The notes under the pieces: model-generated | Databases searched by the model: none | What the model saw: the letters and a program-made list of their open reading frames with translations, nothing else | What the model was told of the DNA's origin: nothing | Origin: Patescibacteria group bacterium | GTDB taxonomy: Bacteria > Patescibacteriota > Minisyncoccia > UBA6257 > Colwellbacteraceae | Reading direction: 5' to 3' | NCBI GenBank assembly: GCA_023380305.1 | Contig: JAMCQZ010000006.1 | Location: 1-58,281 of the forward strand | DNA length: 58,281 nucleotides | Translations under genes and position numbers: made by a program | Shown: in pieces, positions 13,148-38,730 of the stretch | Numbering within the stretch: position 1 is the first letter of the stretch | Layout: each line of letters opens with the position of its first letter

Positions 13148-13243
13148 CGAACTCTTTTTAGCTTATATTTGAAGGGCTTTGTTTACAAGCCAGCCGTATT
13201 TGTTTTTCTTCAATAATCATTTACAATAGACATTGTTTAAAAC

Positions 13244-13316: not shown

Positions 13317-13376
13317 CAAAGAAAATTTGGTTATTGTCCGGGTCGTCAAAACCGGCTATTATAACCTTGATCCTTC

Positions 13377-13448
13377 GGGCCCGTAGCTTAGTGGTAGAGC
13401 GCCACATTTGCAATGTGGAGGTCATCGGTTCGAGTCCGATCGGGTCCA
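13377..13448 (+). tRNA. tRNA-Ala(UGC)
   Basis: GGGCCCG/CGGGTCC acceptor stem with G3:U70; CCACA-ttTGCaa-TGTGG anticodon arm. Confidence 0.95.
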
Positions 13449-13462
13449 CAAGAATCAAGTTT

Positions 13463-13552
13463 GGAGGGTTCGCATAGTGGTCTAGTGCGCCGCACTCGAA
13501 ATGCGGTTTCCCGGAAACGGGATCACAGGTTCAAATCCTGTACCCTCCGCCA
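13463..13552 (+). tRNA. tRNA-Ser(CGA)
   Basis: GGAGGGT/ACCCTCC acceptor stem, CCGCA-ctCGAaa-TGCGG anticodon arm, long variable arm, encoded CCA at 13550-13552. Confidence 0.95.
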
Positions 13553-14684: not shown

Positions 14685-14776
14685 TATAACTAAGAATATT
14701 AAGTATAAATTAACATCGGAGAATCGATTTTAAGGTCCCCGTGGAGAACAGTCGATAATTTAAAATAAATCGGTTT

Positions 14777-15385
14777 ATGCGGAAGGTTCTCGAACATTTT
14801 CAAAAATACGACTCCAAAATTTATCCGTATCTTAAAAACGTCCCCGGATTGGAGCGGCTTAATCGGAGACGACCAAACGAATATTTCGGTCGGCTTTGCC
14901 GGGCCATTATTTTTCAGCAGATTTCCGGTAAAGCCGGAGACGCCATTTTAAAGAAATTTCTGGCGTTGTTTCCGGGAGGAAGGGCGACTCCCAAAAGAAT
15001 TTTATCGCTTTCCGACACCGTGTTGAGACGAGCCGGCGTTTCTCCTCAAAAATCGAAATATTTGAAAAGCCTGGCCGAGCATTTTGCTTCCGGACGCATG
15101 AAGACAAAAAAATTCGAGAGTCTTTCCGACGAAGAAATAATCTCCGAGCTTGTTAAGGTAAAGGGCATCGGCCGCTGGACAGCCGAGATGTTTTTGATGT
15201 TCACCCTGGGGAGGGAAGACATTTTTTCTCCGGGCGATCTCGGCCTTAAAAAAGGGCTGATGAAGGTTTACGGGCTTAAAGAATATCCGTCGGAGAGGCG
15301 GACAGCCGATATTATCAGGCGTTGGTCTCCGTACAAAACCTACGGCTGCCTCGCATTATGGCACAGCAACGATAAAAAGGATTAA
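14777..15385 (+). CDS. DNA-3-methyladenine glycosylase II (AlkA, HhH-GPD family)
   Basis: AIIFQQISGKAG, HhH motif LVKVKGIGRWTAEM, catalytic Asp region PGDLGL, WSPYKTY. Confidence 0.9.
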   Translation: MRKVLEHFQKYDSKIYPYLKNVPGLERLNRRRPNEYFGRLCRAIIFQQISGKAGDAILKKFLALFPGGRATPKRILSLSDTVLRRAGVSPQKSKYLKSLAEHFASGRMKTKKFESLSDEEIISELVKVKGIGRWTAEMFLMFTLGREDIFSPGDLGLKKGLMKVYGLKEYPSERRTADIIRRWSPYKTYGCLALWHSNDKKD

Positions 15386-15439
15386 TTTCCCGGCGGCTTG
15401 TGTTATACTTAATTCAATAAAGTCAGTCTTTTAATCGCC

Positions 15440-17452
15440 ATGAGCAAAATAAAAACAGGGAGTTTTGCCGCGAACGCCGGAGCTTCTAACCGGGGTCGGA
15501 GGGGATTCACTTTAATGGAGCTTCTGGTCTATGTCGGAGTTTTTTCGGTGGCCTCAGTCTTTCTCACAAATATTCTATTGACGGTGACGAATATCAGCAG
15601 CCGGGAATCGGCCTCGAGAGAGGTTTCTTCCCAGCTCGATACGACGCTTGAAACCATTCAGCAATTGATCCAGCAATCGAGCACCATCGAGTCGGCCACG
15701 GGTTCGACTTTAAAACTCAGGATGTCCGATCCGGCCAAAGATCCGACTTGCATCACCCTGGAGTCCGGCGTGATTAAAATCGCCCAGGGGCCGGGCACTC
15801 CGGCAGACGAATGCTCGACGACGAAGACCGATCTTACCACCAGTAAAGTGGTGGCCGACTCGTTGGCCTTCACCAAAATCGATAATATCCAGTATTCAGA
15901 AACAGAAGGAAAGGATCTGGTTGGCCATTCGGTCGTCAACATCGATATGGCCATGACATACAACACCTCCAATCCGAAATACGAGATCTCGCGGACCCTG
16001 TCTTCCGCTATCGGCCGCGTGTCGGCCGCGACTTTTGATTCGGATTTGCTGCCCGATACGGCCAATACGCGGAGCATCGGTACAAGCGCCTTGAAGTGGC
16101 AGAATTTGAACGTGAACGGAACAGCCTATTTCGCCGGTTCCGTCGGCATCAATGTTTCTACACCAGCCCAAAAGCTTGATGTAAACGGCAGTATCAAACA
16201 AGGGAAGATCGTTCTTTGGGCTGGCGCCATCGGAACCTTTGATCGGGTTGCCGATCAGGTCGCCTATATCAATTTCGGGGACATCGGCTGGCTCGGTTCG
16301 GTCGAAATCAACATCACCGGAGGGTGGAACTACAGTCCGGCTTTTGGAGCGCTCACTAAAAGATTTTCTTTCTATCACGCCGCGGCAGGCACGTCTTACA
16401 GCAACTATATTTCGGAAGTGACAGCGGCTTCTGGCCCGGTGGCGACCAACTACGCGATAGGCGAGCTGGAAATTTACGAAACTTCTAAATTAAGGATCCC
16501 AATTTATCAGGTGAACGACGCGGCATCGAACACGCTCTACACCACGATCAAGATTTTTTCGACTAACGCCGACACTATGGCAAATGCCATCACCATTACC
16601 GCTCCGGCCACGGTTACCAACACTTACACAAGAAACAATGTTTCTTTTATGGACACAAGCGTGGGTATCGGGACGAACAGCCCGGCATACAAATTGCATG
16701 TTTATAGCGCGGCGGGCGGGACAGGTTCAACTATACTTGTCGGAGCAGGCACGAGCGGAAACGCGCAACTGGTGCTGGATTCCGCGAACGGAGACGGCGC
16801 TGGAGCCGACTATTATCTATTGGCCCATAACAGAGCGGACAATAATTTGAATATCGGATACGGAGGAGCGAGCAATCTAGTTATAACTAGCGATGGCAAG
16901 GTCGGTGTCGGAGCAGCGCCCGGATACAAACTGGACGTGGTAAGCGGAGGAGCGACTACCGCCCGTTTCGGTAGCGCCGCCGGAGATACGGTGGTTGTGG
17001 GCGGTGGGTCTGGTAAATTGACCGTCGGAACGGTCGACCCGCTTTTCAACATCGATGGAAGACAATATGCCACTTATACGCCTGGCATGACCGGCGTCAA
17101 AGAGGAGACGGCCGGAGTCTTGGCCTTGGATAATATGGGCAACGGCCGTTTGTCCGCGGAAATCGATTTCGGGGCCGCGGAGAACGGTTCCGACCTTTGG
17201 ATTTTCCGCAATGTGACCGATTTCGGGGATGATTGGGAAAATCTTGGAGTCTTGCTCACGCCGGGATTTATCGGAAGGGTTTCTTACAAAAAAGATATTC
17301 GTAACAATCGTATTATCATCACCGGCGACGCCAACGAGACGGTCAGCGACTTTGAGGTTTCCTATCGCCTGACTGCTCCGAGATTCGATCATCTGGATTG
17401 GCCGAACATTCCTCTTAATACGGAACCGGGGATCGGCTTAAAGGTCAGATAA
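15440..17452 (+). CDS. Type IV pilin-like protein with a long tail-fibre-like C-terminal extension
   Basis: Class III signal RRG|FTLMELLVYVGV, followed by three VGI/VGV..P..KL(D/H)V repeats. Confidence 0.8.
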   Translation: MSKIKTGSFAANAGASNRGRRGFTLMELLVYVGVFSVASVFLTNILLTVTNISSRESASREVSSQLDTTLETIQQLIQQSSTIESATGSTLKLRMSDPAKDPTCITLESGVIKIAQGPGTPADECSTTKTDLTTSKVVADSLAFTKIDNIQYSETEGKDLVGHSVVNIDMAMTYNTSNPKYEISRTLSSAIGRVSAATFDSDLLPDTANTRSIGTSALKWQNLNVNGTAYFAGSVGINVSTPAQKLDVNGSIKQGKIVLWAGAIGTFDRVADQVAYINFGDIGWLGSVEINITGGWNYSPAFGALTKRFSFYHAAAGTSYSNYISEVTAASGPVATNYAIGELEIYETSKLRIPIYQVNDAASNTLYTTIKIFSTNADTMANAITITAPATVTNTYTRNNVSFMDTSVGIGTNSPAYKLHVYSAAGGTGSTILVGAGTSGNAQLVLDSANGDGAGADYYLLAHNRADNNLNIGYGGASNLVITSDGKVGVGAAPGYKLDVVSGGATTARFGSAAGDTVVVGGGSGKLTVGTVDPLFNIDGRQYATYTPGMTGVKEETAGVLALDNMGNGRLSAEIDFGAAENGSDLWIFRNVTDFGDDWENLGVLLTPGFIGRVSYKKDIRNNRIIITGDANETVSDFEVSYRLTAPRFDHLDWPNIPLNTEPGIGLKVR

Positions 17453-17463
17453 AAGACAACAAT

Positions 17464-18954
17464 ATGCGTATTTCAAAGAAGATTGATGTCGTTAAAATAG
17501 CCGCCATCGCGGTTTTGGTCGTCGTGGCCGTAATCAGCCTAGTCGTTATTTTAAACGTCCGGTCGTCGGCAGGCCCGCATCAAGCGGAAAATCGGACCGC
17601 TGCCGGCGCGCAGCATAAACGCCCTATTCTTCCTTCGGGTCGTCAAGTCTACCGGATCAGCCAAGCGGCCGAAACTTGGCCCAAGTTCATTCAAGCGACC
17701 CTCGATCCGGTTGACGTTCATGTCGGAGACACCCAATTTCTGTCGGTGATTGTCGAAGACGAGGCCGCGATCGTTTCGGTTGAAGCCAAAATCGAGACCG
17801 ATAACGGCGAGCTGACTCTGCCACTTACATACAGCGAACCAGCCAAAGTGCTTTTGGTTCCTCTCGGAAAGATCGCTCTGGCGGAAGAATCCGCCAAAAC
17901 TTCGTTATACGAAGGATCGTGGAAGGTGAAAGATACGCATGACATCACTTATCACACCACTTTTGTTGCCAAGGACGTTTTGGGTCGCGAGAGCTCCATC
18001 ACGCTTGCTTGGAGCGACGCTTGCGGCATTCCGTTCGGGGGAAACGTTACTCTAAGCTCCAATTGCACGATTTCGGCTGTTGACGGTGTGGATAACGGCA
18101 GCCTGACCATTACCGCCGGCACAACCCTAACATTGAATGCCGAATTCGTTTTTAATTCCGGCAAGACCATTACCATCAACAATGGCGGAGCGATCGCGTT
18201 CGGCGCCGGAGGAGTTCTTAGAAAAACCAATCTTTGGATGATCGATGCCGATAGTGATAACTATCCGAATAGTACGAATCAAATTGCTTCAGACACGGCG
18301 CCAGCGAACGGAAGGAGGCGTTATCTTTTAAACGCGACGGGCATCGATTGCAATGATGCGAATATTTCTATTTATCCTGGAGTGGTTACCGGATCCGGAT
18401 CGTGTTCGTGCTCTTACTCTTCAACCTGCGATGAGTCGGCGAGCGGCACTTTGGACAACACGACGTGCAACAGCGACGGAACGTATACTGGAGGAGTCAG
18501 TTCTTGCACGTGTACGCGAGATAGAGATGGCTATACGTGTGGCACGACTTATATCTGCGGTGATTATATAAGCCATCCTCCCTATACTCATAGATTTTCC
18601 GTCCCTCTGACTTGCGCCGCCGGAGTCTGTAACGCGACCAACTGGGCGGCGGCAACGGATTTGGGATGTAGCACATCTTGTACCGGATGTTGCAGCACCA
18701 GCGACTGCGCGTCGACTGCTTGGTGCAATACCGTGTGGGAATGCGATGCCTGCAGCAACTTGGCGTCGGCTTGCGGCGGCGGAACCCCATGCAATACCTG
18801 CAGCGGCGTTTCAAAGCCGTGGTATTGCGATTGTTCCGGCTACACTTCCACCTCCCATTGCAGCGGATATCAGTTCGTGAGCAGCGTTCAAAGATGCGGC
18901 ACTTGCGGATGTTCAGCCGGAACAACCTGTCAGGGAGACGGCACCTGTCTTTAA
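17464..18954 (+). CDS. Membrane-anchored surface protein with a beta-rich core and a very Cys-rich C-terminus
   Basis: N-terminal transmembrane helix, D.D.D.Y and DCND..IYPG motifs, and 30 Cys counted in the last 202 residues. Confidence 0.75.
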   Translation: MRISKKIDVVKIAAIAVLVVVAVISLVVILNVRSSAGPHQAENRTAAGAQHKRPILPSGRQVYRISQAAETWPKFIQATLDPVDVHVGDTQFLSVIVEDEAAIVSVEAKIETDNGELTLPLTYSEPAKVLLVPLGKIALAEESAKTSLYEGSWKVKDTHDITYHTTFVAKDVLGRESSITLAWSDACGIPFGGNVTLSSNCTISAVDGVDNGSLTITAGTTLTLNAEFVFNSGKTITINNGGAIAFGAGGVLRKTNLWMIDADSDNYPNSTNQIASDTAPANGRRRYLLNATGIDCNDANISIYPGVVTGSGSCSCSYSSTCDESASGTLDNTTCNSDGTYTGGVSSCTCTRDRDGYTCGTTYICGDYISHPPYTHRFSVPLTCAAGVCNATNWAAATDLGCSTSCTGCCSTSDCASTAWCNTVWECDACSNLASACGGGTPCNTCSGVSKPWYCDCSGYTSTSHCSGYQFVSSVQRCGTCGCSAGTTCQGDGTCL

Positions 18955-18989
18955 TTTGGCTTATGGCGGCTGGATCCGGCCGCGCTGTT

Positions 18990-19679
18990 TTAGCTTTTTG
19001 CAAAAACGAATCCGATGACTTTCCTGGCGCCGGCGGACTTTAAAGTTTTTATGGCTTCGGCCATGGTCGCGCCCGAAGTGAAGACGTCATCGACGACGAT
19101 TAAAGTTTTCCCCGAAACCGCTTCTTTCTGACGGGAGTCAACACGGAAACTTCCGGAAAGATTTTTTAATCTTTCTGATTTTTGCTCGAGCTGAGCCTGG
19201 GGTCTGGTGTTTTTGATTCTGCAAAGCAGGCGGTTGTTTACCGGCCATCCGGTTGCGGCGCTCAAAATCGCGGCCAGATCCTCGGCTTGATTAAACCCGC
19301 GGCTGATTGATTTCATGAAGTGTAAGGGAACCGGCACGAGTTCCGGATGCGGGGGCTGACGAAAAAGGGCGAGAAAATCGGATTTCCGGAGGTATGTTTT
19401 AACGATTTCGGAAATCGGGTATTTCACTCCGGGAAAATCTTCGTATTTCAGGAAGCGCACCAGGTTTCTCACGGCGTCAATCCGATAAAAAGTGGCGGCG
19501 CCGAAGAAAAATCCTCGGCTGTGGAAAACCTGGCGGTTGACGATAATTGAACCAAAACATTGGCCGCATAGAAGATTTTTTCTGTCGATCGTGCCGTCAA
19601 GCTCCCGGCGGCAATTCAGGCAGAGTTTGGGAAAAATCAGATCCAAAAACTGTCCTTTGATGTTCGTTAAGCCCCTCAT
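18990..19679 (-). CDS. comF: ComF family competence protein (PRT fold with N-terminal Zn ribbon)
   Basis: LIFPKLCLNC...LCGQC, LVPVPLH...RGFNQA, RLKNLSGSF, VVDDVFTSGAT. Confidence 0.9.
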   Translation of the reverse strand: MRGLTNIKGQFLDLIFPKLCLNCRRELDGTIDRKNLLCGQCFGSIIVNRQVFHSRGFFFGAATFYRIDAVRNLVRFLKYEDFPGVKYPISEIVKTYLRKSDFLALFRQPPHPELVPVPLHFMKSISRGFNQAEDLAAILSAATGWPVNNRLLCRIKNTRPQAQLEQKSERLKNLSGSFRVDSRQKEAVSGKTLIVVDDVFTSGATMAEAIKTLKSAGARKVIGFVFAKS

Positions 19680-19709: not shown

Positions 19710-20798
19710 ATGGCCATATTTGATTTTTTGAAGCCCCTAAAACCGTTGCTTTCTTTCCAATCGGCCATCGGGGTTGATATTGGCACGACTTCCATCAAGC
19801 TCATCGAATTAACGATCGTCGCTGATCGGCCGCAATTCAAAAACTACGGCATATTGGAAACATACGGCCACTTATCCAGGCAGAATAGCGCCATCCAGAC
19901 AAGCAGTCTGAAGATGGACGACAAAGAAGCGGCCGCCATGTTGCAGGCGCTCGTTAAACAGACCAGGCCCGGAAACGCCATGGTTTTTGCGTCTTTGCCT
20001 CCATTCTCCGTTTTTACCACCTTGCTCGAGCTGCCGATGATGCCGAAGAGCGAAATGGATCAAATCATGGCTTACCAGGCGCGGGCCTTGGTGCCGGCCG
20101 CCATTGCTTCCGTTTCCACCGAATGGTCGGTGGTCGGCGAGTTCGAGGATGAAAAGGGGCAAAAAAAGCAGCAGGTTTTTTTAAGCGCCATTCCGAACAA
20201 CATTGTCGAAAAATACAAGAGCATTTTTCAAACAGCCGGTTTGAGTTTGAAGGTTATCGAGATCGAGGGCGCAAGCCTGGCCAGGGTTTTTACAAAAGGG
20301 GACGATGAATTTTCCTTGATTCTCGATATTGGCGGGAGATCGACCGGAATCTACGTCGCCCAAAACGGTCATCTTTTTTCGAGCGGTTATATTGATTACG
20401 CCGGCGGCTCTTTAAGTCAGGCGGTCGCGAACGGCTTGAATATCAACGTGAAGCGGGCCGAAGAGCTGAAAAAACGCCGGGGTTTGCTCGGAATAGGCGG
20501 GGAATACGAGTTGTCCACTTTAATGCTGCCCTACGTGGATGTTATACTTAATGAGATAAAACGAGCGAAAGACAATTTTGAGAGGAATTATCGCGGCCAA
20601 ATAAAGAAAGTGATCCTTTCCGGCGGAGGCGGCGAACTTGCCGGTCTGGAGAAATATGCCGCCGAATTCCTGCAGATGAGAGTCGAAAAACCCAGCCCTT
20701 TTGCCAATATCAGCTATCCGCCGGCGCTCCAGCCCGTGGTGAACGAGCTTGGGGGGGAGCTGGCAGTCGCGATCGGACTCGGATTGCGCCAATTTTAA
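19710..20798 (+). CDS. pilM: Type IV pilus assembly protein PilM
   Basis: IGVDIGTTSIKLIEL, LILDIGG, VILSGGG, AVAIGLGLR (actin-like fold). Confidence 0.92.
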   Translation: MAIFDFLKPLKPLLSFQSAIGVDIGTTSIKLIELTIVADRPQFKNYGILETYGHLSRQNSAIQTSSLKMDDKEAAAMLQALVKQTRPGNAMVFASLPPFSVFTTLLELPMMPKSEMDQIMAYQARALVPAAIASVSTEWSVVGEFEDEKGQKKQQVFLSAIPNNIVEKYKSIFQTAGLSLKVIEIEGASLARVFTKGDDEFSLILDIGGRSTGIYVAQNGHLFSSGYIDYAGGSLSQAVANGLNINVKRAEELKKRRGLLGIGGEYELSTLMLPYVDVILNEIKRAKDNFERNYRGQIKKVILSGGGGELAGLEKYAAEFLQMRVEKPSPFANISYPPALQPVVNELGGELAVAIGLGLRQF

Positions 20799-20801
20799 AA
20801 A

Positions 20802-21347
20802 ATGCCACCGCAATATCCAAGCAATATCGATCAAAGATTCAATGTCGGCCGCGAACCGGCCGGGTGGCCGGCAAGACTTTTCGCATTTTCCCTTTTCATC
20901 CTCGTTTTGCTCGCGGTGAGTTATTTCGGTTTGGTATACGGATATAAGCCGTTCTTGCAGAAAGACATTCGAAATATTCAGAGCCAGACCGAACAACTGG
21001 ACCAACAAGTGTCGCCGGCCGACCGCCAGGCTTTTATCGCTTTTTATTCCCAGATAGAGAATTTAAAGAGCCTGCTTTCGAAACACGTTTTTTCCTCCAA
21101 AATATTTCCGTTTATCGAGACGAACACCCGGAAAGACGTGGCTTATAATTCGATGGATCTCGACGTCGCAAGTCGAACGGCCAACTTAAGCGGGACAGCC
21201 GCGAACTACGAATCGTTGGCGAGCCAACTTGATGTTTTTCAAAATCTTTCCGAGGTAAAGAGCGTTGCCATCAACGGGGCGACGGTCGGTCAAGGAGGAG
21301 TTTCTTTCCAAATACAAATAATTTTCAACAATGGCTTCTTCCTTTAA
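20802..21347 (+). CDS. pilN: PilN-like protein
   Basis: Follows pilM; single transmembrane helix; C-terminal LSGTAANYESLASQL...VSFQIQI fold. Confidence 0.65.
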   Translation: MPPQYPSNIDQRFNVGREPAGWPARLFAFSLFILVLLAVSYFGLVYGYKPFLQKDIRNIQSQTEQLDQQVSPADRQAFIAFYSQIENLKSLLSKHVFSSKIFPFIETNTRKDVAYNSMDLDVASRTANLSGTAANYESLASQLDVFQNLSEVKSVAINGATVGQGGVSFQIQIIFNNGFFL

Positions 21348-21891
21348 GAGATTCTTGAGTATTTTGGGAAGCATCGCTTTGCTGATAGCGGCGGTGATCG
21401 TATTCACCAATTTCATCAGACCGGAATTCGAGGGAACGGACGGCGTCAAACAGCTGAGGACCAAGCGCGATGCCGCTGCGGCGACGTTCAACCTGGCGAC
21501 CGCCCAAGTGGACGCCTTTGCCAACTTGGCAAAACAGTACGAGGACAGCTTCCAATACAAATCTGAGCTTGACCGGTCCCTGCCGTCGGGCGACAACATT
21601 CCCGAAGTCCTGGCGCAGATTCAGGGCCTTGCCGCTGCAGACAAAGTGGCCTTGGCGAGCGTTACTTTTCAGCACCCGCCGATGCAATCCAGCCAGAGCT
21701 CGTTTGTGAGCGCCTACGGCGTTTTGAGGGCCTCTTTAAGAGCCGAAGGCGGATACAACGATATCAAGGCTTTCATCCGGGATATTGAAAACAACATCAG
21801 GCTGATGGACGTGTCATCGATGAACCTGAGCACCTCGGGAAGAAGCAACGTGTATTCCCTCCAACTAACAATCAACACATATTACGAATAA
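21331..21891 (+). CDS. pilO: PilO-like protein
   Basis: Transmembrane helix, coiled coil, LP....IP.VL.QI..LA, GGYNDIKAFIRDIENNIRLMDV. Confidence 0.75.
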   Translation: MASSFKRFLSILGSIALLIAAVIVFTNFIRPEFEGTDGVKQLRTKRDAAAATFNLATAQVDAFANLAKQYEDSFQYKSELDRSLPSGDNIPEVLAQIQGLAAADKVALASVTFQHPPMQSSQSSFVSAYGVLRASLRAEGGYNDIKAFIRDIENNIRLMDVSSMNLSTSGRSNVYSLQLTINTYYE

Positions 21892-21892
21892 C

Positions 21893-22195
21893 ATGGCCGT
21901 CATCATTCAACCGAGTCAAAAAGGGTCGAGAACGTTTATTCTGGTTTCCATTGCGGCGGTGATCGCCATGGTGGCCGTAGGCGCCTATTATCTTTTCTTC
22001 ACGCCGGCGCCCCTTATCGAAGCGATCCTGCCCGCCAATCTTCAATCGGTCGCCGATTTGAAGGGTCTTAAGTTCAATCCGGAGGAGGTACTGCAAAACG
22101 ATTTCTTCTCCGCCGAAAAGTCGAGAAAGTCGATCATCCTTCCGGAAGCGGGCGCGAGCGTCTTGGGGAGGACCAATCCCTTCGCCGCTTTTTAA
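21893..22195 (+). CDS. Small single-helix membrane protein at the PilP position
   Basis: Between pilO and pilB; ends GRTNPF, similar to the PilP xDPF motif. Confidence 0.6.
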   Translation: MAVIIQPSQKGSRTFILVSIAAVIAMVAVGAYYLFFTPAPLIEAILPANLQSVADLKGLKFNPEEVLQNDFFSAEKSRKSIILPEAGASVLGRTNPFAAF

Positions 22196-22196
22196 G

Positions 22197-23930
22197 ATGG
22201 ACTCCCAAATTTTAACGGCTGCCCTCATCAAAAAAAATCTGCTGACCAAAGAAGCGGGGGAGCAGGTATTGAAGGAATCGGCAGTTTCTCAAAAACCAGT
22301 CGAGGATTTGCTTTACATGCGTCGGACGATCCCCGAAGAAAAAATTGCCGAGGTAAAGAGCGAGATTACAGGGATTCCTTATCAAAAAATAGACATCAAA
22401 GTTCTAACAGACGATCTTTTGGCGCTTGTGCCGAAAGAGACGGTTCAAACTTATAAGGTGGCGCCGCTTTCGCGCACCAAAGATATGCTGGTGGTCGGCA
22501 TGGTTGACCCCCAAGACAGCCGGGCCCAGGACGCGCTGCGTTTTATCGCCAAAGCCAACCGTTTAAATCTCGGAGTTTATGTCATTACGCCTTCGGACCT
22601 TGAGTTGGTGCTCCGGAAATACAATCCGTACAAATCGGAAGTCGAGGCCGCCATCAGGTCGTTGGGAATGAAGCCCGGGGAGGGGCTGTCGCCGTTGCAG
22701 CGACCGGTGGCTCTTGAAGAATCGCGAGGCGTGGCCGAAGAAGCGCCGATCATCAAACTGGTCGCTTCGACGTTCCGAGAGGCGGTGGAACGCAAGGCTT
22801 CCGATATTCACGTGGAACCGATGAGAAACCGGGTCCGCGTGAGATTCAGGATAGACGGGGATTTGGAGGAGGCGGCTTCGTTCCCCATCGAGCTTCAACA
22901 GCCGCTCGTTTCAAGAATCAAGATCCTTTCCGATCTTAAAATAGACGAAACAAGAATCCCCCAGGACGGCCGTTTTAGGACGGTGATTTTCGGTCGGGAC
23001 ATTGATTTTCGCGTCGCCACCTTTCCGACACCCATGGGAGAAAAAGTGGCTCTGCGCGTTTTGGATCCAAGCATCGGATTGAAAGGCATCGATAACTTGG
23101 GCATCGTCGGCAAGAATGCCGACATCATCAAGGAGGGCATCGAAAAACCGTTCGGAATGGTGCTCGTCACCGGTCCGACCGGTTCGGGAAAGACCACCAC
23201 GTTGTATGCGCTTTTGAAAATTTTGAACCAGGAGAACGTCAATATCGTCAGTTTGGAAGACCCGGTGGAATATTTCGTCGAAGGTATCAACCAATCCCAG
23301 GTAAAGCCCGAGATCGGTTACGATTTCGCTTCCGGCCTCCGTCAGATTTTGCGGCAAGACCCCGATATTATTATGGTCGGCGAAATCCGCGACAACGAAA
23401 CCGCCGGCCTGGCGGTAAACGCCGCGCTGACCGGACATATCGTGCTTTCCACCCTTCACACCAATAACGCCGCCGGCGTCATTCCGAGGCTCATTGACAT
23501 GGAGGTGCCTCCTTTTCTCTTGCCTTCGGCGTTGAATCTGATGATGTCCCAGCGACTTTTGGGAAGGCTTTGCCAACAGTGCCGCCAGACGGAGGCGGCT
23601 TCGCCGGAAATCCAAAAAATTATCAAAGAAGAAATCGCTAAACTTCCGGAAGAAGTGAGATTGAAGCTCGTTTACAAGGAACCATATCAAATTTTCCATT
23701 CTCCAGGATGCCCGGCCTGCAAAAATAAAGGAACCTCCGGTCGTATTGCCATTTTCGAAATCATGCGGATGACGAGGGAGCTTGAGAAGATTATCGCCGA
23801 GCATCCGACTGAGGCAGCCATTATCGACGAGGGCGCGCGTCAGGGGATGATCACTTTAAGACAAGATGGAATTCTGAAGGCGCTGGACGGCGTTGTCTCG
23901 ATGGAAGAGGTTTTGAGGGAAACCGAATAG
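22197..23930 (+). CDS. pilB: Type IV pilus extension ATPase (PilB/GspE)
   Basis: ASDIHVEP, PQDGRF, Walker A GPTGSGKTTT, LRQDPDIIMVGEIRD, tetra-Cys CQQC/CPAC. Confidence 0.95.
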   Translation: MDSQILTAALIKKNLLTKEAGEQVLKESAVSQKPVEDLLYMRRTIPEEKIAEVKSEITGIPYQKIDIKVLTDDLLALVPKETVQTYKVAPLSRTKDMLVVGMVDPQDSRAQDALRFIAKANRLNLGVYVITPSDLELVLRKYNPYKSEVEAAIRSLGMKPGEGLSPLQRPVALEESRGVAEEAPIIKLVASTFREAVERKASDIHVEPMRNRVRVRFRIDGDLEEAASFPIELQQPLVSRIKILSDLKIDETRIPQDGRFRTVIFGRDIDFRVATFPTPMGEKVALRVLDPSIGLKGIDNLGIVGKNADIIKEGIEKPFGMVLVTGPTGSGKTTTLYALLKILNQENVNIVSLEDPVEYFVEGINQSQVKPEIGYDFASGLRQILRQDPDIIMVGEIRDNETAGLAVNAALTGHIVLSTLHTNNAAGVIPRLIDMEVPPFLLPSALNLMMSQRLLGRLCQQCRQTEAASPEIQKIIKEEIAKLPEEVRLKLVYKEPYQIFHSPGCPACKNKGTSGRIAIFEIMRMTRELEKIIAEHPTEAAIIDEGARQGMITLRQDGILKALDGVVSMEEVLRETE

Positions 23931-23975
23931 CTTGTGATATAATAAAAAACGATCCGCCAAGCGGACGAAAATACC

Positions 23976-25046
23976 ATGGATTACAGGCAAAAGATGAACG
24001 AGCTGCTTCTGATGACGGCGCGCAACAACGCTTCAGATTTGCATTTGGCCGTCGGCCGCCGGCCGATGATGCGTATCGACGGCAGCCTGATGGATATGCC
24101 GAAAGAGCAGGTCTTAACCCCGGAAATGACGGCGGGCCTCATCGGCGCCCTACTTACCGACGAGCAAAAAGAGAAATTTTTAACCTATCGCGATCTTGAT
24201 CTTTCATATTCTTTTGAAGACAAGGCCCGTTTCCGCGTCAACGTTTTTTTCCAGCGCGGTTTTATGGCGGCTTCCTTGCGTTTAATACCGGCTCAAATTA
24301 GGACTCTTGAAGAACTTCACCTTCCGCCGATTCTTCATGAATTTACCGAGCTTTCCCAGGGATTTGTGCTGGTTGTCGGTCCGGCCGGCCACGGAAAATC
24401 GAGCACGCTTGCGGCTTTGGTCGACGAGATCAACCACAAGCGGATGGATCATATCATTACCATCGAGGATCCGATCGAATACCTTTTCGTCCAGGACAAA
24501 TGCATCGTCTCTCAAAGAGAGGTGAAGACCGACAGTTTGAATTTTCACCAGGCTCTGAAGTCTTTGTTGCGTCAAGATCCGGATGTGGTGATGATCGGCG
24601 AAATGAGGGATTCCGAATCCATAGCCACGGCGATGACTTCGGCGGAAACCGGACATTTGGTTTTTTCCACCCTTCACACCAACTCGGCCGCTCAAACCAT
24701 CGACCGCATCATCGATTCTTTCCCGGCTAACCAACAGGGACAAATTACGTCCCAGCTTGCCGCCACCTTGGTCGGCATCGTTTCCCAGAGGCTTGTTCCG
24801 CGCATCGACGGCGGCCGCGTCCCGGCTTGCGAAATAATGTTTGTTAATTCCGCTATCCGAAATTTGATCCGGGAGAGAAAAATTTATCAGATCGACCTGG
24901 TTATCGAAACAAGCCTGCAGGAGGGCATGAGCACGTTAAACCGGTCTTTGGCCGAGCTCGTGAAAAAGAGGGAAATTTCTTTGGAAAACGCCGAGTTGTA
25001 TTCTTTAAATCCTTCGGAATTGAGAATCCTTCTCGAGCGGATTTAG
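23976..25046 (+). CDS. pilT: Type IV pilus retraction ATPase PilT
   Basis: ASDLHL, RFRVNVF, GPAGHGKSST, TIEDPIE, QREV, AETGHLVFSTLHT, AIRNLIRE. Confidence 0.95.
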   Translation: MDYRQKMNELLLMTARNNASDLHLAVGRRPMMRIDGSLMDMPKEQVLTPEMTAGLIGALLTDEQKEKFLTYRDLDLSYSFEDKARFRVNVFFQRGFMAASLRLIPAQIRTLEELHLPPILHEFTELSQGFVLVVGPAGHGKSSTLAALVDEINHKRMDHIITIEDPIEYLFVQDKCIVSQREVKTDSLNFHQALKSLLRQDPDVVMIGEMRDSESIATAMTSAETGHLVFSTLHTNSAAQTIDRIIDSFPANQQGQITSQLAATLVGIVSQRLVPRIDGGRVPACEIMFVNSAIRNLIRERKIYQIDLVIETSLQEGMSTLNRSLAELVKKREISLENAELYSLNPSELRILLERI

Positions 25047-25049
25047 ACA

Positions 25050-26258
25050 ATGAGGTTCAAATATTCAGCGAGAACTAAAGAAGGGGAACTCCAAGCCGGG
25101 TTTGTCGAGGCGCCGACCAAGGAGTCGGCTATCGGCATCTTGACCGGGCACGAGCTTTTTATCCTCACCCTGGAAAGCGAAGAGAAAAAATCATTCCTCG
25201 CCGGCTTGCCGTTTTTCGGCGAAAGGGTGAGCCTGCACGACCTGATGGTTTTCACAAGGCAATTCGCCACCTTGCTTTCGGCTCAGGTGCCGCTCGACCG
25301 GACGTTTACGACTCTTTTCAATCAGACGCGCAACCCGCTTTTAAAAAGGACCGTCGAAGAAGTGCGCCAGGATATCGATTCCGGATTGGCCCTTTCCCAG
25401 GCTCTCGAGAAGTACGAAAATGTCTTCTCGCCGTTCTACGTGAATATGGTCAGGTCCGCGGAGATAACCGGCCGGCTCGAAGAGGCGGTCAGCTATCTGG
25501 CCGATTATTACGAACGGCAGGCGACGTTGTCGGGAAAAATCAAGAATTCAATGACCTATCCGATGGTAACGATCGTCCTTTTTCTGGGCGTCGCCGGGTA
25601 TCTTATCGTCGGAGTCTTGCCGCAGATCGAAGACATGTTCGTTTCTTCGGGCATCAAGCTGCCGGCTTTCACCCACAGTTTGGTGGTGCTTGGACAGTTT
25701 TTTACCCATTGGTGGTTTTTGGTTCTATTTTCCATTGCCGCCCTGGTTTTCTTTTTTATGGATTATTTCCGATCGGCCGAGGGCAAGATTGTCTATGATG
25801 AGCTTATCTTTAGGATGCCGGTATTCGGGAAACTGTTTCGTTACATCGCCATCGCCCAGTTCGGGGAGTCGGCGAGCATCCTTATCAAAGGAGGGATCCC
25901 TATTGCGCAAGCTTTGGAAATAACCGGAGACACCATTGGTAACATGATCTATGGAGACGCCTTGAAATCTTCAGCCGAGGACATCAGGCGGGGAGAGCTG
26001 TTGTCCCAATCTCTCGCTAAAAACCAGGATTTGTTTCCTCCGCTCGTGAGCCAGATGGTCGCCGTCGGCGAGACCACCGGCCGTTTGGACGAGCTCCTGT
26101 CGAAACTTTCCGGTTTTTACAGCCGGGAAGTGGACGAAACCGTCGGCAACCTGGTGGAGCTTATTCAGCCCGCCTTGATGATCGTCATCGGCGGCGCCGT
26201 AGCCGGACTTTTCGCTTCGATTTTGCTGCCGATGTTCCAATTTGTTTCCACGTTGTAA
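25050..26258 (+). CDS. pilC: Type IV pilus platform protein PilC (GspF family)
   Basis: FTRQFATLL, GE.TGRL motifs in two GspF domains, LIQPALMIVIG. Confidence 0.93.
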   Translation: MRFKYSARTKEGELQAGFVEAPTKESAIGILTGHELFILTLESEEKKSFLAGLPFFGERVSLHDLMVFTRQFATLLSAQVPLDRTFTTLFNQTRNPLLKRTVEEVRQDIDSGLALSQALEKYENVFSPFYVNMVRSAEITGRLEEAVSYLADYYERQATLSGKIKNSMTYPMVTIVLFLGVAGYLIVGVLPQIEDMFVSSGIKLPAFTHSLVVLGQFFTHWWFLVLFSIAALVFFFMDYFRSAEGKIVYDELIFRMPVFGKLFRYIAIAQFGESASILIKGGIPIAQALEITGDTIGNMIYGDALKSSAEDIRRGELLSQSLAKNQDLFPPLVSQMVAVGETTGRLDELLSKLSGFYSREVDETVGNLVELIQPALMIVIGGAVAGLFASILLPMFQFVSTL

Positions 26259-26331: not shown

Positions 26332-26817
26332 ATGAAATCGCAAAAAGGTTTTACGCTGGTCGAAATGGTGATCGTCATCGCAGTCATCGGCATTCTGATG
26401 GGATTGGTTTTCAACGGAACACGGAGCGTTCAGGCCAACGCTCGGGATACGCGCCGGCAAGCGGACTTGAAGAAAGTCCAAACTTATTTGGAGCTGTATT
26501 TTAATAAATGCGGACATTATCCGGTTACCACATTCACTATACCAGCAGATAGCTGCAAGATAACCGCGGCACCGACATATAATCAATTAGTGACGCTTCT
26601 TGAGAGTACCGTTGCGAGCGGAGGAGAAATGCCGCATGATCCTATCACTACGCCGGGTCATGAATACCAATATGGAGTTGATATAGCCGCTGGTCAACAA
26701 GGATTTGATTATGTGCTTGGGGCGCAAATGGAAAAAGGAGTGCCGACAGGCGGCGTTACTACCGATCCGCTATATGGCATCGCGGGGTGTGGCACTACTT
26801 TATATTGCGTGAAGTAA
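26332..26817 (+). CDS. Major type IV pilin candidate
   Basis: KG|FTLVEMVIVIAVIGIL, ARDTRRQADL, YFNKCGHYP, C-terminal Cys pair; lies between pilC and pilD. Confidence 0.85.
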   Translation: MKSQKGFTLVEMVIVIAVIGILMGLVFNGTRSVQANARDTRRQADLKKVQTYLELYFNKCGHYPVTTFTIPADSCKITAAPTYNQLVTLLESTVASGGEMPHDPITTPGHEYQYGVDIAAGQQGFDYVLGAQMEKGVPTGGVTTDPLYGIAGCGTTLYCVK

Positions 26818-26824: not shown

Positions 26825-27670
26825 GTGATAGCCAATTACTTCATTTTATTTATTTTCGGCGCTTGCATCGGCAGTTTTCTTAATGTCGTTGTTTTGCGGT
26901 ACAACCCGGAAAAAACAGCCTTGTTGGGGCGGCATCTTGGGGGAAGGTCAAGATGCCGTTCTTGCGGAAAATCTCTGCGATGGTTCGAACTCATTCCGGT
27001 TTTAAGCTTCGCTTTTCAAGGAGGGAAGTGTCGGGGATGCCGGCAAAAAATATCCTGGCAATATCCGATCGTCGAGATTCTTTCGGGAGCCATTCTTGTC
27101 GCCGCCTATTGGAAATGGGGGTTCACCCCGGAGGCGCTTTTGATTAGCTTGTTCGCTTTAAGCCTTCTCGTTTTATCCTTCATCGATTTCTATTTTCAAG
27201 TCATCCCCGACGAGCTCAATCTTTTCATCGGTTTTTTGGGACTGATCTTCGTCTTTTTCGGGGCATGGGACAAGTCTTTCGGCCCGACCGAAGGGTCTTT
27301 TATAGGATATTATGCGAGCGTCTTGGGATTTCGGCAGAATATCTTCATCAACCATTTGGCGGCCGCTGTTTTCGCGGGACTATTGTTTTACGGATTAATC
27401 TTTTTGACGCGCGGGAAAGGCATGGGCGTCGGCGACGCCAAGCTGGCTCTTGCCGCCGGGCTTTTTATCGGCTGGCCGGACATAGTGCTGGCCCTGATGT
27501 TTTCTTTCGTGTTGGGAGGGCTTTTCGGATTTGTCGCGCTTGTCTCGCGCAAGAAAAAAATGAAGGATTTGTTGCCATTCGGCCCGTTTATGGCGGCGGG
27601 GATTCTTTTAATAGTCTTTTTGGGCTTTAATATATGCCATGGTTATCTCCGATTTTTTAATCTCGTTTAG
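26825..27670 (+). CDS. pilD: Prepilin peptidase / N-methyltransferase
   Basis: GSFLNVV, RSRCRSC, CRGC..KISWQYP, aspartate motifs FIDF and GMGVGDAKL, LPFGPFM. Confidence 0.95.
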   Translation: MIANYFILFIFGACIGSFLNVVVLRYNPEKTALLGRHLGGRSRCRSCGKSLRWFELIPVLSFAFQGGKCRGCRQKISWQYPIVEILSGAILVAAYWKWGFTPEALLISLFALSLLVLSFIDFYFQVIPDELNLFIGFLGLIFVFFGAWDKSFGPTEGSFIGYYASVLGFRQNIFINHLAAAVFAGLLFYGLIFLTRGKGMGVGDAKLALAAGLFIGWPDIVLALMFSFVLGGLFGFVALVSRKKKMKDLLPFGPFMAAGILLIVFLGFNICHGYLRFFNLV

Positions 27671-28235
27671 GAAATCCGCGAATTGCCATCGCGGGCGGAT
27701 TTCGGGATTTACTTTGGTGGAAATGGTGGTGACGATCGGCATCGTCTCCTTGCTTTTAACGTCGATGAGTATTTCCGGAGCTTCGATCAGAAGAGAATTC
27801 GCCTTGGCCAAAGCTCAAGAAGAATTAAGAAGTTTGATCACTTACGCCAGATTCTTGAGCGTGGCCACTCTGGCTGATCCGGGAGGCGCGCTGGTTTGCG
27901 GTTACGGGGTGCATATCTTAACCAACCCGGGAGCCGGCAATCCTAATGCTTATATTTTTCGCGATTCCGGCGATGGTGAAATCTGTTCGGGTATTAATGA
28001 AACGGATAATTTAAAAGACCAGGGCACATTATATTCGATGACTTTGGACCCTTTAATATTATTAGATTCCCCGGATCAAATAATCGAATTTATTCCGCCG
28101 GATCCGACAGTGGTTTTTGATCCCGGAGCCGATCCCGATGGAGGCGTAACTATTGTAGTCCAGTCCAGGAGTGGATCCGGTCATTCGCGTCAAGTCAAGG
28201 TTCTCGCCTCGGGTATGGTTTCGATAGCCCGTTAA
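27639..28235 (+). CDS. Minor pilin (FimU/GspH-like position)
   Basis: SG|FTLVEMVVTIGIVSLL; overlaps the end of pilD. Confidence 0.82.
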   Translation: MVISDFLISFRKSANCHRGRISGFTLVEMVVTIGIVSLLLTSMSISGASIRREFALAKAQEELRSLITYARFLSVATLADPGGALVCGYGVHILTNPGAGNPNAYIFRDSGDGEICSGINETDNLKDQGTLYSMTLDPLILLDSPDQIIEFIPPDPTVVFDPGADPDGGVTIVVQSRSGSGHSRQVKVLASGMVSIAR

Positions 28236-28255
28236 ACCGGTTATAATCAAGAAAA

Positions 28256-28801
28256 ATGAGAAGCGGCAAGGGACAATTCATTGTCGAGGGAATGATCGCC
28301 ATGGGCATCATTGTTTCGAGCGTTCTCGGTATTTTTAGTCTGGCGGTGAGCGCTTTGCGGGTGAGTTCGGCGGTAACCGATCAATTTATCGCCGCCAATC
28401 TGGCGGCCGAAGGGATCGAGGTGACAAAAAATATTTTAGACAGCAATGTCGCCCGGGGACGTCCTTGGAACGAGAACTTCGCGGTCAGCCGCTGTTTCGA
28501 GGTGGTTTACAACGGCGCCGATACGTCGCGGAACCTGTCGAGCTGCGACGCCGCAGGAGAAGATGACGTCGCTGTGACGTTCAATGAAGCGCGCTTTTTA
28601 AACATCAACGCCGTCAATGGTCTATACGATTACAGCGCCTCGGAAGAATCGAGTATTATGAAGCGTTGGATTCAAACTAGGCCTTTATCCGATCTTAAGA
28701 TCCGGGCGATAGCGACCGTGGCCTGGCGCGATCGGAGAAATCCCAACAACATTTTGACATCGAGAATAGCCACGGATTTTGTCGGTTGGCGGGCGGATTA
28801 A
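28256..28801 (+). CDS. Minor pilin (PilV-like)
   Basis: KG|QFIVEGMIAMGII with E5, and A.NLAAEGIE helix motif. Confidence 0.78.
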   Translation: MRSGKGQFIVEGMIAMGIIVSSVLGIFSLAVSALRVSSAVTDQFIAANLAAEGIEVTKNILDSNVARGRPWNENFAVSRCFEVVYNGADTSRNLSSCDAAGEDDVAVTFNEARFLNINAVNGLYDYSASEESSIMKRWIQTRPLSDLKIRAIATVAWRDRRNPNNILTSRIATDFVGWRAD

Positions 28802-28808
28802 CAATAAA

Positions 28809-29309
28809 ATGACGAATCATTCCAAAAATTCGGGATTTACCTTGATCGAGCTTACTATCACCTTGGGAATTTTTGTTTTCGTTATTTTTTTGATCTTATC
28901 CATTTTTACCAACTCGTTGAAAGCCGAACGCAACGTGGCCAATCAAACGGCTATTCTCGACAATCTTTCCTTGGTAATCGAACAAATGGCACGGGAGATA
29001 AGAACCGGTACCAATTTTCCTTCTTCGCCGGAGACCAGTTCGTTCGCTTTCAAAAACTATCTCAATCAGAACGTCGTTTATTCAAAGCCGGCGGACGGAG
29101 ACTACGTCACTAAAAATACGAATGGCGTCGTTACGCGGCTGACCGCGGACGATATTCAGGTAACGAATTTAAAGTTTTATATCACCCAACCGGATTTTTA
29201 TCCGCCGAGGGTAACCATCCAATTTCAGGTGAAAAGTTCTCTGTTTCAGGGAGTGCTCACCTTTCAAACGACCGTGAGCGAAAGGTTGTTCTATTACAAG
29301 GCTTCTTGA
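28809..29309 (+). CDS. Minor pilin (PilW-like)
   Basis: SG|FTLIELTITLGIF, MAREIRTG, terminal FQTTVSER. Start reassigned to 28809. Confidence 0.82.
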   Translation: MTNHSKNSGFTLIELTITLGIFVFVIFLILSIFTNSLKAERNVANQTAILDNLSLVIEQMAREIRTGTNFPSSPETSSFAFKNYLNQNVVYSKPADGDYVTKNTNGVVTRLTADDIQVTNLKFYITQPDFYPPRVTIQFQVKSSLFQGVLTFQTTVSERLFYYKAS

Positions 29310-29752
29310 TGAATATGACACACCGATTATCGAAAGGACAAACCATGCTTTTTATGGTTTTTACGATGTCTATCGTTATTCTTGGCGCGACCGCGCTGGC
29401 GAACCTGCTTGTGGTGTATGAATTAAGACAGTCGAGTAGCATCAGCCAATCGACCCAGGCTCTTTTTTCGGCCGATGCCGGAATCGAAAGAATTTTGATG
29501 CGCCGATTCGGATGTTGCGCCGCGGGTTGCGGTCCGATATGCCTTCCGGAAGTGGCGGAAGAGGACGGATCGATTAGCGATACCGGACAGACTTTCAAGG
29601 TTTACAAAAGATGTTCGGACGTCGACGGCAACCCCAGATTGTGCGTCAATCCTCCGGGAGCCGCCTTGATCGAGCGATGGTATGCCGTCGGCAAGGACGC
29701 GACCGGTCAAATCGTGCGCACTTTGGAAATAACTTTCACCGAACAGAAATAA
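29306..29752 (+). CDS. Minor pilin (PilX/GspK-like, lacks E5)
   Basis: KG|QTMLFMVFTM, ALFSADAGIER, terminal RTLEITF. Confidence 0.75.
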   Translation: MMNMTHRLSKGQTMLFMVFTMSIVILGATALANLLVVYELRQSSSISQSTQALFSADAGIERILMRRFGCCAAGCGPICLPEVAEEDGSISDTGQTFKVYKRCSDVDGNPRLCVNPPGAALIERWYAVGKDATGQIVRTLEITFTEQK

Positions 29753-38724: not shown

Positions 38725-38730
38725 AACTTT

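Follow-up and report, generated by a model that had tools for sequence, protein, structure and literature searches.

The DNA considered in this work, hereafter the window, is a stretch of 58,281 nucleotides from a Patescibacteria group bacterium of the Colwellbacteraceae (contig JAMCQZ010000006.1), and it is a piece of cellular chromosome with genes for LeuRS, AlaRS, DnaG, GroEL, RmuC and a P-type ATPase. The local gene order runs from a tRNA cluster through genes for an HD phosphohydrolase, a NUDIX protein and an HhH-GPD glycosylase to the gene that concerns us here, which is followed by a 496-aa open reading frame (ORF), a hairpin, a comF-like gene on the reverse strand and a set of pilus genes. 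In the ORF list of the window, this pilin-fibre gene is a single uninterrupted ORF on the forward strand (15440-17452) of 670 amino acids plus stop. Its product is a modular pilin, in which a pilin module (aa 23-195) is followed by ∼475 residues of fibre and tip, and the genes for PilD, PilB, PilT, PilC, PilMNO and other pilins are found 2 to 12 kb downstream. The reading that we favour, and that we consider rather probable, sees in its product a modular minor type IV pilin that presents a trimeric tip adhesin for host attachment.

The N-terminal part of the protein displays the hallmarks of type IV pilins, namely a class III cleavage site, an alpha-1 helix on a beta-sheet head, and a PilD with its machinery encoded nearby. 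The leader MSKIKTGSFAANAGASNRGRRG precedes FTLMELLVY, with a glycine at position -1, a phenylalanine at +1 (F23) and a glutamate at +5 (E27). The canonical prepilin site RRG/FTLME, which an earlier annotation made by a model from the letters alone (the sequence-only reading) had singled out, is thus present in the translation, and it is covered by the only Pfam match of the whole protein (N_methyl, aa 18-42), which scores above its cutoff (22.1 versus 21.2 bits). NCBIfam returned weak pilin-type matches only, all of them N-terminal. A long leader is typical of type IVb prepilins, and the leader counts 22 residues here. The pilin-sized domain announced by the same reading was recovered in an AlphaFold2 (AF2) monomer model of the full-length protein, which was built from a 114-sequence alignment: aa 23-195 fold as a classic pilin, with the alpha-1 helix at aa 25-79, strands between aa 80 and 192, and a predicted local distance difference test score (pLDDT) of about 90 or more. 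Downstream of it, the neck is modelled with a pLDDT of 55-62 and contains the strings DLLP, ANTRSIG and ALKW (aa 202, 208 and 217, respectively), all of them as read beforehand. An FDSDLLP-like neck motif is found in 75/105 and 74/107 family members in two samples (∼70%), and the segment V194-P205 is invariant among the six closest proteins.

This pilin module defines a large family. A phmmer search with aa 1-250 against 1.84 billion cluster representatives (clusters at 50% identity) yielded 1261 clusters at E<=1e-3, of which 172 reach E<=1e-30, with protein lengths of 225-1878 aa and the pilin module at the N-terminus in nearly all matches listed. In the 90% cluster of the closest variant (P0002), one entry bears the name 'type II secretion system protein [Candidatus Colwellbacteria bacterium]', and Wolfebacteria or Patescibacteria group are the labels of other members of the family. 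The leader differs between close homologues (31-40% identity), Glu5 is invariant among the closest relatives, and G[FY][TS][LI]xE is kept in 83/101 family members. At their C-termini, other members of the family end in Peptidase_S74 (21/105), C1q, C-type lectin, LamG, Kelch or beta-helix domains.

The fusion between pilin and fibre is real and not an assembly artefact, a possibility that the sequence-only reading had left standing. The same protein is encoded without any change on a second, independently assembled contig. Among public runs from mine-tailings, sediment and mine-drainage metagenomes, one 3957-nt contig of run X1 spans 14700-18372 with 0 differences from the window, a contig of run X2 over 15897-17064 covers the neck, both modules and the three motifs, also with 0 differences, and run X3, from a separate study, also contains matching pieces. 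The junctions are identical across independent runs from two studies, a syntenic orthologue is present in loci L001-L003, and the coding sequence of P0002 is identical in at least four assemblies from different samples. The middle of the gene had also been described as richer in A/T-ending codons than both ends, which a sliding-window analysis of the GC content at third codon positions (GC3) did not bear out: GC3 is 0.581 for aa 254-487 (nt ∼16200-16900) versus 0.612 for the two ends (Fisher p=0.46), and every segment of the gene lies inside the range of the other window genes (0.52-0.68). Since GC3 is uniform, codon usage lends no support to a recent foreign origin of the middle. As a separate observation, pieces of run X4 (mine drainage) over 16251-16810 are identical to modules 1 and 2, the pilin and tip parts are without coverage at >=85% identity, and a piece of the downstream gene (18149-18438) is ∼7% diverged; this pattern reflects either low coverage or a strain with the same cassettes in another context.

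Beyond the neck, the shaft is organised by three copies of a VG(I/V)G..P..KL motif, the first at aa 235 (VGINVSTPAQKLDV), the second at aa 408 (VGIGTNSPAYKLHV) and the third at aa 488 (VGVGAAPGYKLDV). They correspond to the three VG(I/V)..P..KL(D/H)V repeats of the sequence-only reading, the third being one residue shorter between VG and P. It is this third copy whose spacing coincides exactly with the capping-loop consensus of the mosaic adhesive trimeric (MAT) fibres, copies 1 and 2 being one residue longer. There is little nucleotide identity among the three copies, and the strict motif is absent elsewhere in the six-frame translation of the window. In the family, at least one VGIG..P...L motif is found in 96/105 and 80/107 members of two samples, with a median motif-to-motif spacing of 80 aa (interquartile range, 68-100), compared with 173 and 80 aa here. 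The two stretches between the motifs had been taken for unrelated inserts. They are indeed unrelated to each other (BLAST), but the notion of plain inserts does not hold, because aa 407-501 constitute a standard shaft module of ∼80 aa. When confronted with a 95-position hidden Markov model (HMM) of 144 modules from other family members (this protein and P0002 left out), aa 407-501 matched end to end (43.4 bits), whereas aa 235-421 matched at their ends only (aa 232-266 and 376-422). The latter result indicates that module 1 is a shaft module with ∼110 extra beta-rich residues. Module 1 is predicted as beta-strands with a pLDDT of 50-60 in the monomer model, and the pLDDT drops to 28-45 for module 2. 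Such low values are expected for an intertwined oligomer and would be compatible with a trimer, of which they are no proof.

The relationship of the shaft to known fibres emerges at the level of the family. A profile combining the module of this protein with 36 diverse family modules was compared with all sequences of the PDB, and its positions 1-93 aligned on chain residues 134-225 of Bdellovibrio bacteriovorus 8OND (Bd2133) with E=1.6e-23. Further matches were obtained for 8OML (6e-12), 8OJN/8ONB/8ONC (3e-9), 8ON4 (9e-7) and 8OL4/8ONF (2e-4). Besides, family member P0079 alone matches 8OND (3.9e-4) and the long tail fibre of phage S16 (6F45, 1e-6). Because the module profile matches these MAT structures, the shaft is, by sequence comparison and transitively via the family profile, homologous to a trimeric beta-helix fibre. 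The PHROG tail-fibre family phrog_9942 additionally matches aa 478-643 (E=5.5e-6). Together with the fold matches of the tip model to phage tail proteins (see below), these results uphold the tail-fibre-like nature that had been attributed to the extension. A Foldseek search of the full-length model against the PDB gave noise only (uromodulin and levivirus coat proteins, E>=0.007).

The C-terminal tip, which starts with TVDPLFNIDGRQYATY at aa 531, had been recognised as a distinct domain, and AF2 agrees with this view by folding aa ∼540-660 confidently and independently (pLDDT 89-97), in accordance with a second model of aa 486-670 based on 77 homologues. Pfam returned nothing for these ∼140 residues, and the PDB nothing significant, whether sequences or folds were compared; the best Foldseek leads in the PDB are weak and consist of the receptor-binding domain of the cyanophage Pam1 tailspike (probability 0.85, E=0.29) and an R1 pyocin fibre. 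In BFVD, the tip model retrieved seven matches at E<=1e-3 (2.9e-6 to 6.5e-4) that are phage tail or tail-fibre-like proteins, with H-type-lectin and gp53-like entries lower in the list. Peptidase_S74 (PF13884, the SDxxxK chaperone) gave no match at E<=0.1, and the protein is, in MAT terms, of the non-S74 type with a beta-rich tip in the place of the chaperone. The 77 tip homologues (P0106-P0182), which are related to 16895-17449 of the window, are mostly 160-320 aa long, and their named sources are of Patescibacteria type except for two generic labels, some being labelled Liptonbacteria or Parcubacteria. A pilin is found in 0/77, GNVGIGT repeats in 27/77 and the motif W/F-x-x-P-S/T-x-x-P-P in 19/77; the twelve homologues that were read either carry a signal peptide or transmembrane (TM) anchor or start mid-fibre. 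Several PHROG tail-fibre families are matched by members of this set. No match to the tip was obtained by tblastn in 50,697 phage genomes, and YRLTAPRF was found in none of the viral contigs scanned, this single pattern being of low sensitivity. In the 19/77 homologues with the W/F-x-x-P-S/T-x-x-P-P motif, which is unannotated, a signal peptide or TM anchor precedes it, and this N-terminal motif may represent a second route of fibre display.

The comparison with four close relatives (P0002-P0005) reveals a mosaic (Table 1). Module 1 is common only to P0002, module 2 is shared with none of them, and the tip, which P0002 and P0003 also have, gives way to others in P0004 and P0005. Six breakpoints are observed, and none of them is more than about 15 residues away from the nearest of the three motifs. 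In a local BLAST search among 100 family proteins, the tip was present in 6 and module 1 in one (P0002), and a query with the middle alone (aa 249-485) found no homologue at E<=0.001 beyond P0002. Over 8 kb, the window and the orthologous locus L001 are 65-85% identical in nucleotides, and the only drop to 33% within the gene is at 16701-16850, in module 2. The neighbouring proteins are 96% (PilT), 89% (PilB), 86% (PilM) and 64% (HhH-GPD) identical to those of L001. The pilin module is thus conserved to the same degree as the pilus machinery, and the parts of the fibre are replaced or change more rapidly. The conserved ends and swapped middles that the sequence-only reading had envisaged were confirmed by this alignment, with a pilin at 80-87% identity and breakpoints at the motifs, and cassette exchange at motif boundaries is, as far as aligned sequences can tell, a fact.

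Table 1. Amino acid identity between segments of the pilin-fibre protein and four close relatives
Segment	P0002	P0003	P0004	P0005
Pilin module, aa 23-200	87%	82%	80%	84%
Module 1, aa 249-405	63%	14%	9%	7%
Module 2, aa 424-485	19%	25%	12%	9%
Third motif and linker, aa 486-530	91%	82%	33%	33%
Tip, aa 531-670	65%	77%	17%	20%

Other aspects of this diversity deserve a mention. Scans of genomes and metagenomes brought to light no further close relatives other than copies of the P0002 variant, and the middle region of P0005 shows a weak, sub-threshold match to CBM_4_9. A diversity-generating retroelement or internal DNA repeats were considered as a source of variation and rejected, as a search of the window found no template-like repeat. 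The loci L004 (P0005) and L007 (P0003) come from different contigs of the same metagenome (JGI sample 3300037067); their pilin modules are 80-84% identical and their middles and tips differ, and they belong either to co-existing strains or to paralogues in one genome.

The surroundings of the gene are those of a pilus locus (Table 2), in which the set of pilus genes is complete and competent for retraction, and the same gene order is found around P0002 in three assemblies and around P0004 (L001-L003 and L008). The 496-aa ORF that directly follows the pilin-fibre gene is conserved in its middle and very rich in cysteines in its C-terminal half, its 3' end varies between relatives, and it has no Pfam, NCBIfam or PHROG match. 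It lies downstream of the three variants with the same tip (the window, P0002 and P0003) and is absent downstream of P0004 and P0005; its product may be a partner of the tip.

Table 2. Coordinates of the pilin-fibre gene, its segments and the neighbouring pilus locus in the window (a slash marks the prepilin cleavage site)
Feature	Coordinates	Strand	Evidence or remark
Whole gene: modular type IV pilin with tail-fibre-like (MAT-like) extension	15440..17452	+	ORF; independent assemblies; syntenic orthologue L001-L003
Class III (prepilin) leader, aa 1-22, last residue Gly22	15440..15505	+	...GRRG/FTLME; Pfam N_methyl aa 18-42
Pilin module, aa 23-195: Phe1, Glu5, hydrophobic alpha-1N, alpha-1 helix, beta-sheet; conserved Cys104 and Cys125	15506..16024	+	AF2; 80-87% identity in P0002-P0005
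Neck, aa 196-234 (..AATFDSDLLPDTANTRSIGTSALKWQNLNV..), conserved pilin-fibre junction	16025..16141	+	FDSDLLP-like motif in family
Motif copy 1 (VGINVSTPAQKLDV), capping-loop-type	16142..16183	+	Similarity to P0003, P0004 and P0005 ends here
Long module 1, aa 249-407	16184..16660	+	Shaft-module ends plus ∼110-aa beta-rich insertion
Motif copy 2 (VGIGTNSPAYKLHV)	16661..16702	+	Similarity to P0002 ends here
Shaft module 2, aa 422-487, Gly/Ala/Ser/Asn-rich, short beta-strands	16703..16900	+	Family module HMM
Motif copy 3 (VGVGAAPGYKLDV)	16901..16939	+	V-G-x-pi-x-x-P-x-x-x-L spacing; P0002 and P0003 are similar again from here
Gly-rich linker, aa 501-530 (..GGATTARFGSAAGDTVVVGGGSGKLTVG)	16940..17029	+	91% / 82% identity in P0002 / P0003; kept in small tip-domain proteins
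C-terminal tip domain, aa 531-670 (TVDPLFNIDG..GSDLW..EVSYRLTAPRFD), beta-rich	17030..17449	+	AF2 fold; 77 homologues
496-aa ORF, N-terminal TM helix, Cys-rich C-terminal half	17464..18954	+	11 nt past the stop codon of the pilin-fibre gene
Terminator-like GC-rich hairpin after the two-gene unit	18966..18983	+	Consensus scan only
ComF-like phosphoribosyltransferase with zinc ribbon, between fibre unit and pilM	18990..19679	-	Pfam Pribosyltran + DZR_2; syntenic in L001-L003 and L008
Pilus machinery: PilM, PilN-like, PilO, PilB (extension ATPase), PilT (retraction ATPase), PilC	19710..26258	+	Pfam; proteins 76-96% identical to those of L001
Candidate major pilin, 161 aa, MKSQKG/FTLVE	26332..26817	+	N_methyl E=2.7e-9
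Prepilin peptidase PilD (A24), expected leader-cleaving enzyme	26825..27670	+	Pfam A24_N_bact + Peptidase_A24
Four small pilin-like ORFs (minor pilin set)	27639..29752	+	N_methyl match for 27639-28235; prepilin-like N-termini

How could such a protein work? In the scenario that we propose, the neighbouring PilD would cleave the 22-residue leader after Gly22, and the pilin module would enter a filament built by the adjacent PilMNO/PilB/PilC machinery. From the remaining ∼475 residues a stalk would arise, homologous to the trimeric beta-helices of phage tail fibres and of the Bdellovibrio MAT proteins. Since such fibres fold as intertwined trimers, three copies would most likely come together at the pilus tip, where, held together by the fibre, they may act as the first subunits and make up the first turn of the filament, as with CofB and TcpB. 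The tip, and perhaps also the side domain of module 1, might then bind a ligand on the surface of the host cell, and PilT-driven retraction would pull the small cell onto its host. Finally, the exchange of whole modules between strains, by recombination at the conserved motifs, would change the binding specificity and leave the pilin anchor constant. Taken as a whole, the picture of a retractile pilus ending in a tail-fibre-like probe on a carrier pilin, with cassettes shuffled between strains that set the host choice of an episymbiont, is more speculative than the assignment as a tip adhesin, and we put its chances at somewhat less than even.

Several observations weigh against the tip-adhesin reading. 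The comF-like gene, oppositely oriented in front of pilM, places the pilin-fibre gene outside the pilus operon itself. In phmmer searches against PDB sequences, neither the whole protein nor aa 401-537 found anything relevant, and since its own shaft module is without a direct PDB match, the tie to MAT fibres is transitive. The tip is about 40-60% identical across Patescibacteria and also occurs on small pilin-less proteins; a tip that is so conserved and pilin-independent fits a common ligand or a role in folding or trimerisation better than strain-specific host recognition. It may therefore bind a common ligand or might be the folding nucleus of the trimer, the specificity then residing in the swapped middle modules. 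In addition, a bulky trimer on a pilin might hinder its passage through the cell envelope. Some of these points lead directly to the main rival, which is the display of a trimeric fibre at the membrane without pilus incorporation. The protein would never be polymerised, and its prepilin signal would serve only for export and for anchoring by alpha-1, in a manner likened to that of archaeal sugar-binding proteins with their class III signal peptides. Indeed, the presence of the same shaft and tip on small pilin-less proteins with a signal peptide or TM anchor implies that the fibre needs no pilus, the gene stands outside the pilM-pilD operon beyond the opposite-strand comF, and the MAT fibres of Bdellovibrio are exposed on the cell surface without any pilin (PMC10769870). 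However, a mere anchor does not account well for the conservation of the whole globular pilin head, which is the best conserved part of the protein (80-87%, on par with PilM and PilB), for a Glu5 that is invariant in the closest relatives and widespread in the family, or for the syntenic position just upstream of the pilus genes. We regard this alternative as unlikely, though worth keeping in mind.

The copy number and the oligomeric state could also be different from what we propose. As scattered single copies along the pilus, the protein would decorate the shaft of the filament with a monomeric, flexible extension carrying lectin-like binding domains, an arrangement with which the confident folding of the tip domain alone in the monomer model agrees well. 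The modules are, on the contrary, homologous to intertwined trimeric beta-helices with faces built from several chains, the shaft is essentially unfolded in the monomer model (pLDDT 28-45), and 21/105 family members end in the trimer-dependent S74 chaperone, a domain that acts as a trimer (PMC10769870), which makes this decoration improbable. Even less credit can be given to a function in a competence pilus, whose extension would capture DNA or do other non-adhesive work. A ComF-like gene is certainly intercalated between the fibre unit and pilM, the type IV pili of Patescibacteria have been linked to natural competence (PMC10187176), and the N-terminus weakly matches the NCBIfam ComGF model (E=0.0096). 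Nevertheless, this match concerns the generic pilin helix only (16 bits versus a cutoff of 80), the extension is homologous to adhesive fibres, and relatives carry glycan- or protein-binding folds such as C1q, C-type lectin and LamG, to which the weak CBM_4_9 match of P0005 can be added. At the far end of the scale, a prophage remnant or an assembly chimera between a pilin gene and a phage tail-fibre gene is effectively refuted, and we reject it on the basis of the junction-spanning identical contigs and the cellular surroundings. The PHROG and BFVD matches to tail-fibre proteins could have suggested such an origin, but the sequence is identical across the junctions in independent runs of two studies, the same architecture occurs in hundreds of clusters, the neighbours are housekeeping and pilus genes with none from phages, GC3 is even along the gene, tblastn found no match in 50,697 phage records and the tip motif is in no viral contig scanned.

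Compared with known systems, the tip-adhesin reading amounts to a combination of two known kinds of protein, of which the architecture is well supported and the role in host attachment appears plausible from sequence comparison. The first kind is the modular pilins surveyed by Raynaud et al. in 2021, exemplified by S. sanguinis PilB (pilin and vWA) and PilC (pilin and lectin), where the association of IPR012902 with IPR030392 (pilin and Peptidase S74; 29 proteins) is among the most frequent (PMC8179133). They likewise consist of an N-terminal class III pilin module with grafted C-terminal modules, many of them belong to the Candidate Phyla Radiation, and a role as tip adhesins has been proposed. 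In that catalogue, the S74 architecture was taken as a 'peptidase' and not as a trimeric fibre. The extension described here also differs from the catalogued examples in being a multi-module fibre with cassette exchange rather than a single globular module and, since it contains neither S74 nor another annotated domain, a survey based on domain signatures would miss this protein.

The second kind is the MAT fibres of Bdellovibrio, such as Bd2133 (8OND), Bd3182, Bd1334 and Bd2439 (Caulton et al. 2024, PMC10769870). These are intertwined trimeric beta-helices with edge capping loops of the type V-G-G/N-pi-x-x-P-x-x-x-L, they are related to the L-shaped tail fibre of T5 and to the K1F endosialidase, and they end in the S74 chaperone or in other tips (PMC10769870). 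Their likeness to our protein, by sequence and transitive, lies in modules of ∼80-100 aa of beta-helix bounded by V-G-x-x-x-x-P-x-x-x-L, in the existence of S74 and non-S74 classes with a beta-rich tip replacing S74, and in tips and modules that are swapped between paralogues or relatives. Bdellovibrio also lives by attaching to other bacteria. Conversely, all 21 Bdellovibrio MATs start with a Sec signal peptide and a conserved ∼130-aa beta-rich N-terminal domain, in the place of which a prepilin leader and a pilin are found here. Without the MAT N-terminal domain, the protein carries a MAT-type shaft and is not a member of the MAT family. The solved MAT structures are also absent from the best 50 matches of the PDB fold search with the tip, and the supplementary tables of the MAT study list no pilin-fused or Patescibacteria MATs (PMC10769870).

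More remote parallels can be drawn with other fibres and tip pilins. Trimeric beta-helix stalks with the same type of motif are intertwined in S74 phage fibres and tailspikes (T5 pb1, K1F endosialidase, S16 gp37), which resemble our protein by the 6F45 match of a family member, by the PHROG families and by the mosaic nature of their receptor-binding parts. They differ from it since the gene is here chromosomal beside pilus genes, lacks S74, encodes a pilin N-terminus instead of a virion attachment part and has no direct match in phage genomes. CofB (CFA/III of enterotoxigenic Escherichia coli) and TcpB (TCP of Vibrio cholerae) are homotrimers thought to stand at the pilus tip and to start its assembly (PMC8179133). 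They share with our protein the succession of a pilin module and of a beta-rich extension at the C-terminus, but their extension is made of a beta-repeat and a beta-sandwich and not of a capping-loop beta-helix, and no cassette exchange has been described for them. Neither was matched in the PDB by sequence, and with Foldseek they gave no match at E<=0.001 and were not among the best 50 matches. The analogy holds in principle only. In Saccharibacteria, the minor pilins PilX1 and PilX2 have large C-terminal domains and were proposed as tip adhesins, PilX2 being needed for efficient host binding (PMC11623550). These domains are a beta-jelly-roll and a beta-propeller, no PilD signal was predicted by the authors (PMC11623550), and they were not retrieved as homologues here. 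With 1261 clusters at E<=1e-3, a pilin-S74 architecture catalogued in 2021 and the tip trimers of CofB and TcpB as precedents, calling a pilin with a trimerising fibre an unusual architecture, as the sequence-only reading did, was overstated.

What the locus adds is the junction between modular pilins and the MAT fibres of Bdellovibrio, which were so far unlinked in the literature searched; a full-text search of the same library found no paper in which a tail-fibre-like trimer is carried by a pilin of Patescibacteria. The locus also allows the 'pilin-S74 peptidase' architecture of the 2021 catalogue to be re-read as a fibre adhesin, and it suggests a widespread device (>1000 clusters), in which a conserved carrier pilin would present a trimeric stalk with exchangeable binding modules. 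It is important to recall that the way in which ultrasmall episymbiotic bacteria of the Patescibacteria/Candidate Phyla Radiation find and hold their hosts is poorly understood, and that none of their surface organelles is more conserved than type IV pili. If our proposal is correct, host range could be traced in uncultivated lineages with the variable cassettes as sequence markers, ligand screening would have a defined target in the conserved tip domain, and the carrier-pilin probe would be a cellular counterpart of host-range switching in phages.

A few minor observations complete the description of the window. Upstream of the pilin-fibre gene, TGTTATACT at 15400-15412, ∼30 nt 5' of the ATG, resembles an extended -10 element, which was left unlisted by the consensus promoter scan because it has no -35 match; the 54-nt gap between the HhH-GPD gene and the pilin-fibre gene may thus contain a separate promoter for the latter. 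A 746-aa ORF (10288-12528, forward strand) contains four fibronectin type III repeats, which correspond to the DNA repeat families D1 and D2 (10684-11956), shows a weak match to the Ig-like domain of the phage tip attachment protein J and probably represents a further surface protein. A cluster of four tRNA genes occupies 13060-13552, where tRNA-Ser(cga) (13463-13552) overlaps the first 52 nt of the HD-domain ORF (13501-14169), whose true start is therefore probably further downstream. Around tRNA-Ser(gga) (38393-38478), the GC content dips to 0.39 at 38001-39000 (about 0.50 elsewhere) in a region with short ORFs only, which may correspond to the remnant of an integration event or to an intergenic island. 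Lastly, a 537-aa ORF (48314-49927, forward strand) has weak Baseplate_J-like and GlxA beta-barrel matches and sits in housekeeping surroundings, with AlaRS upstream.

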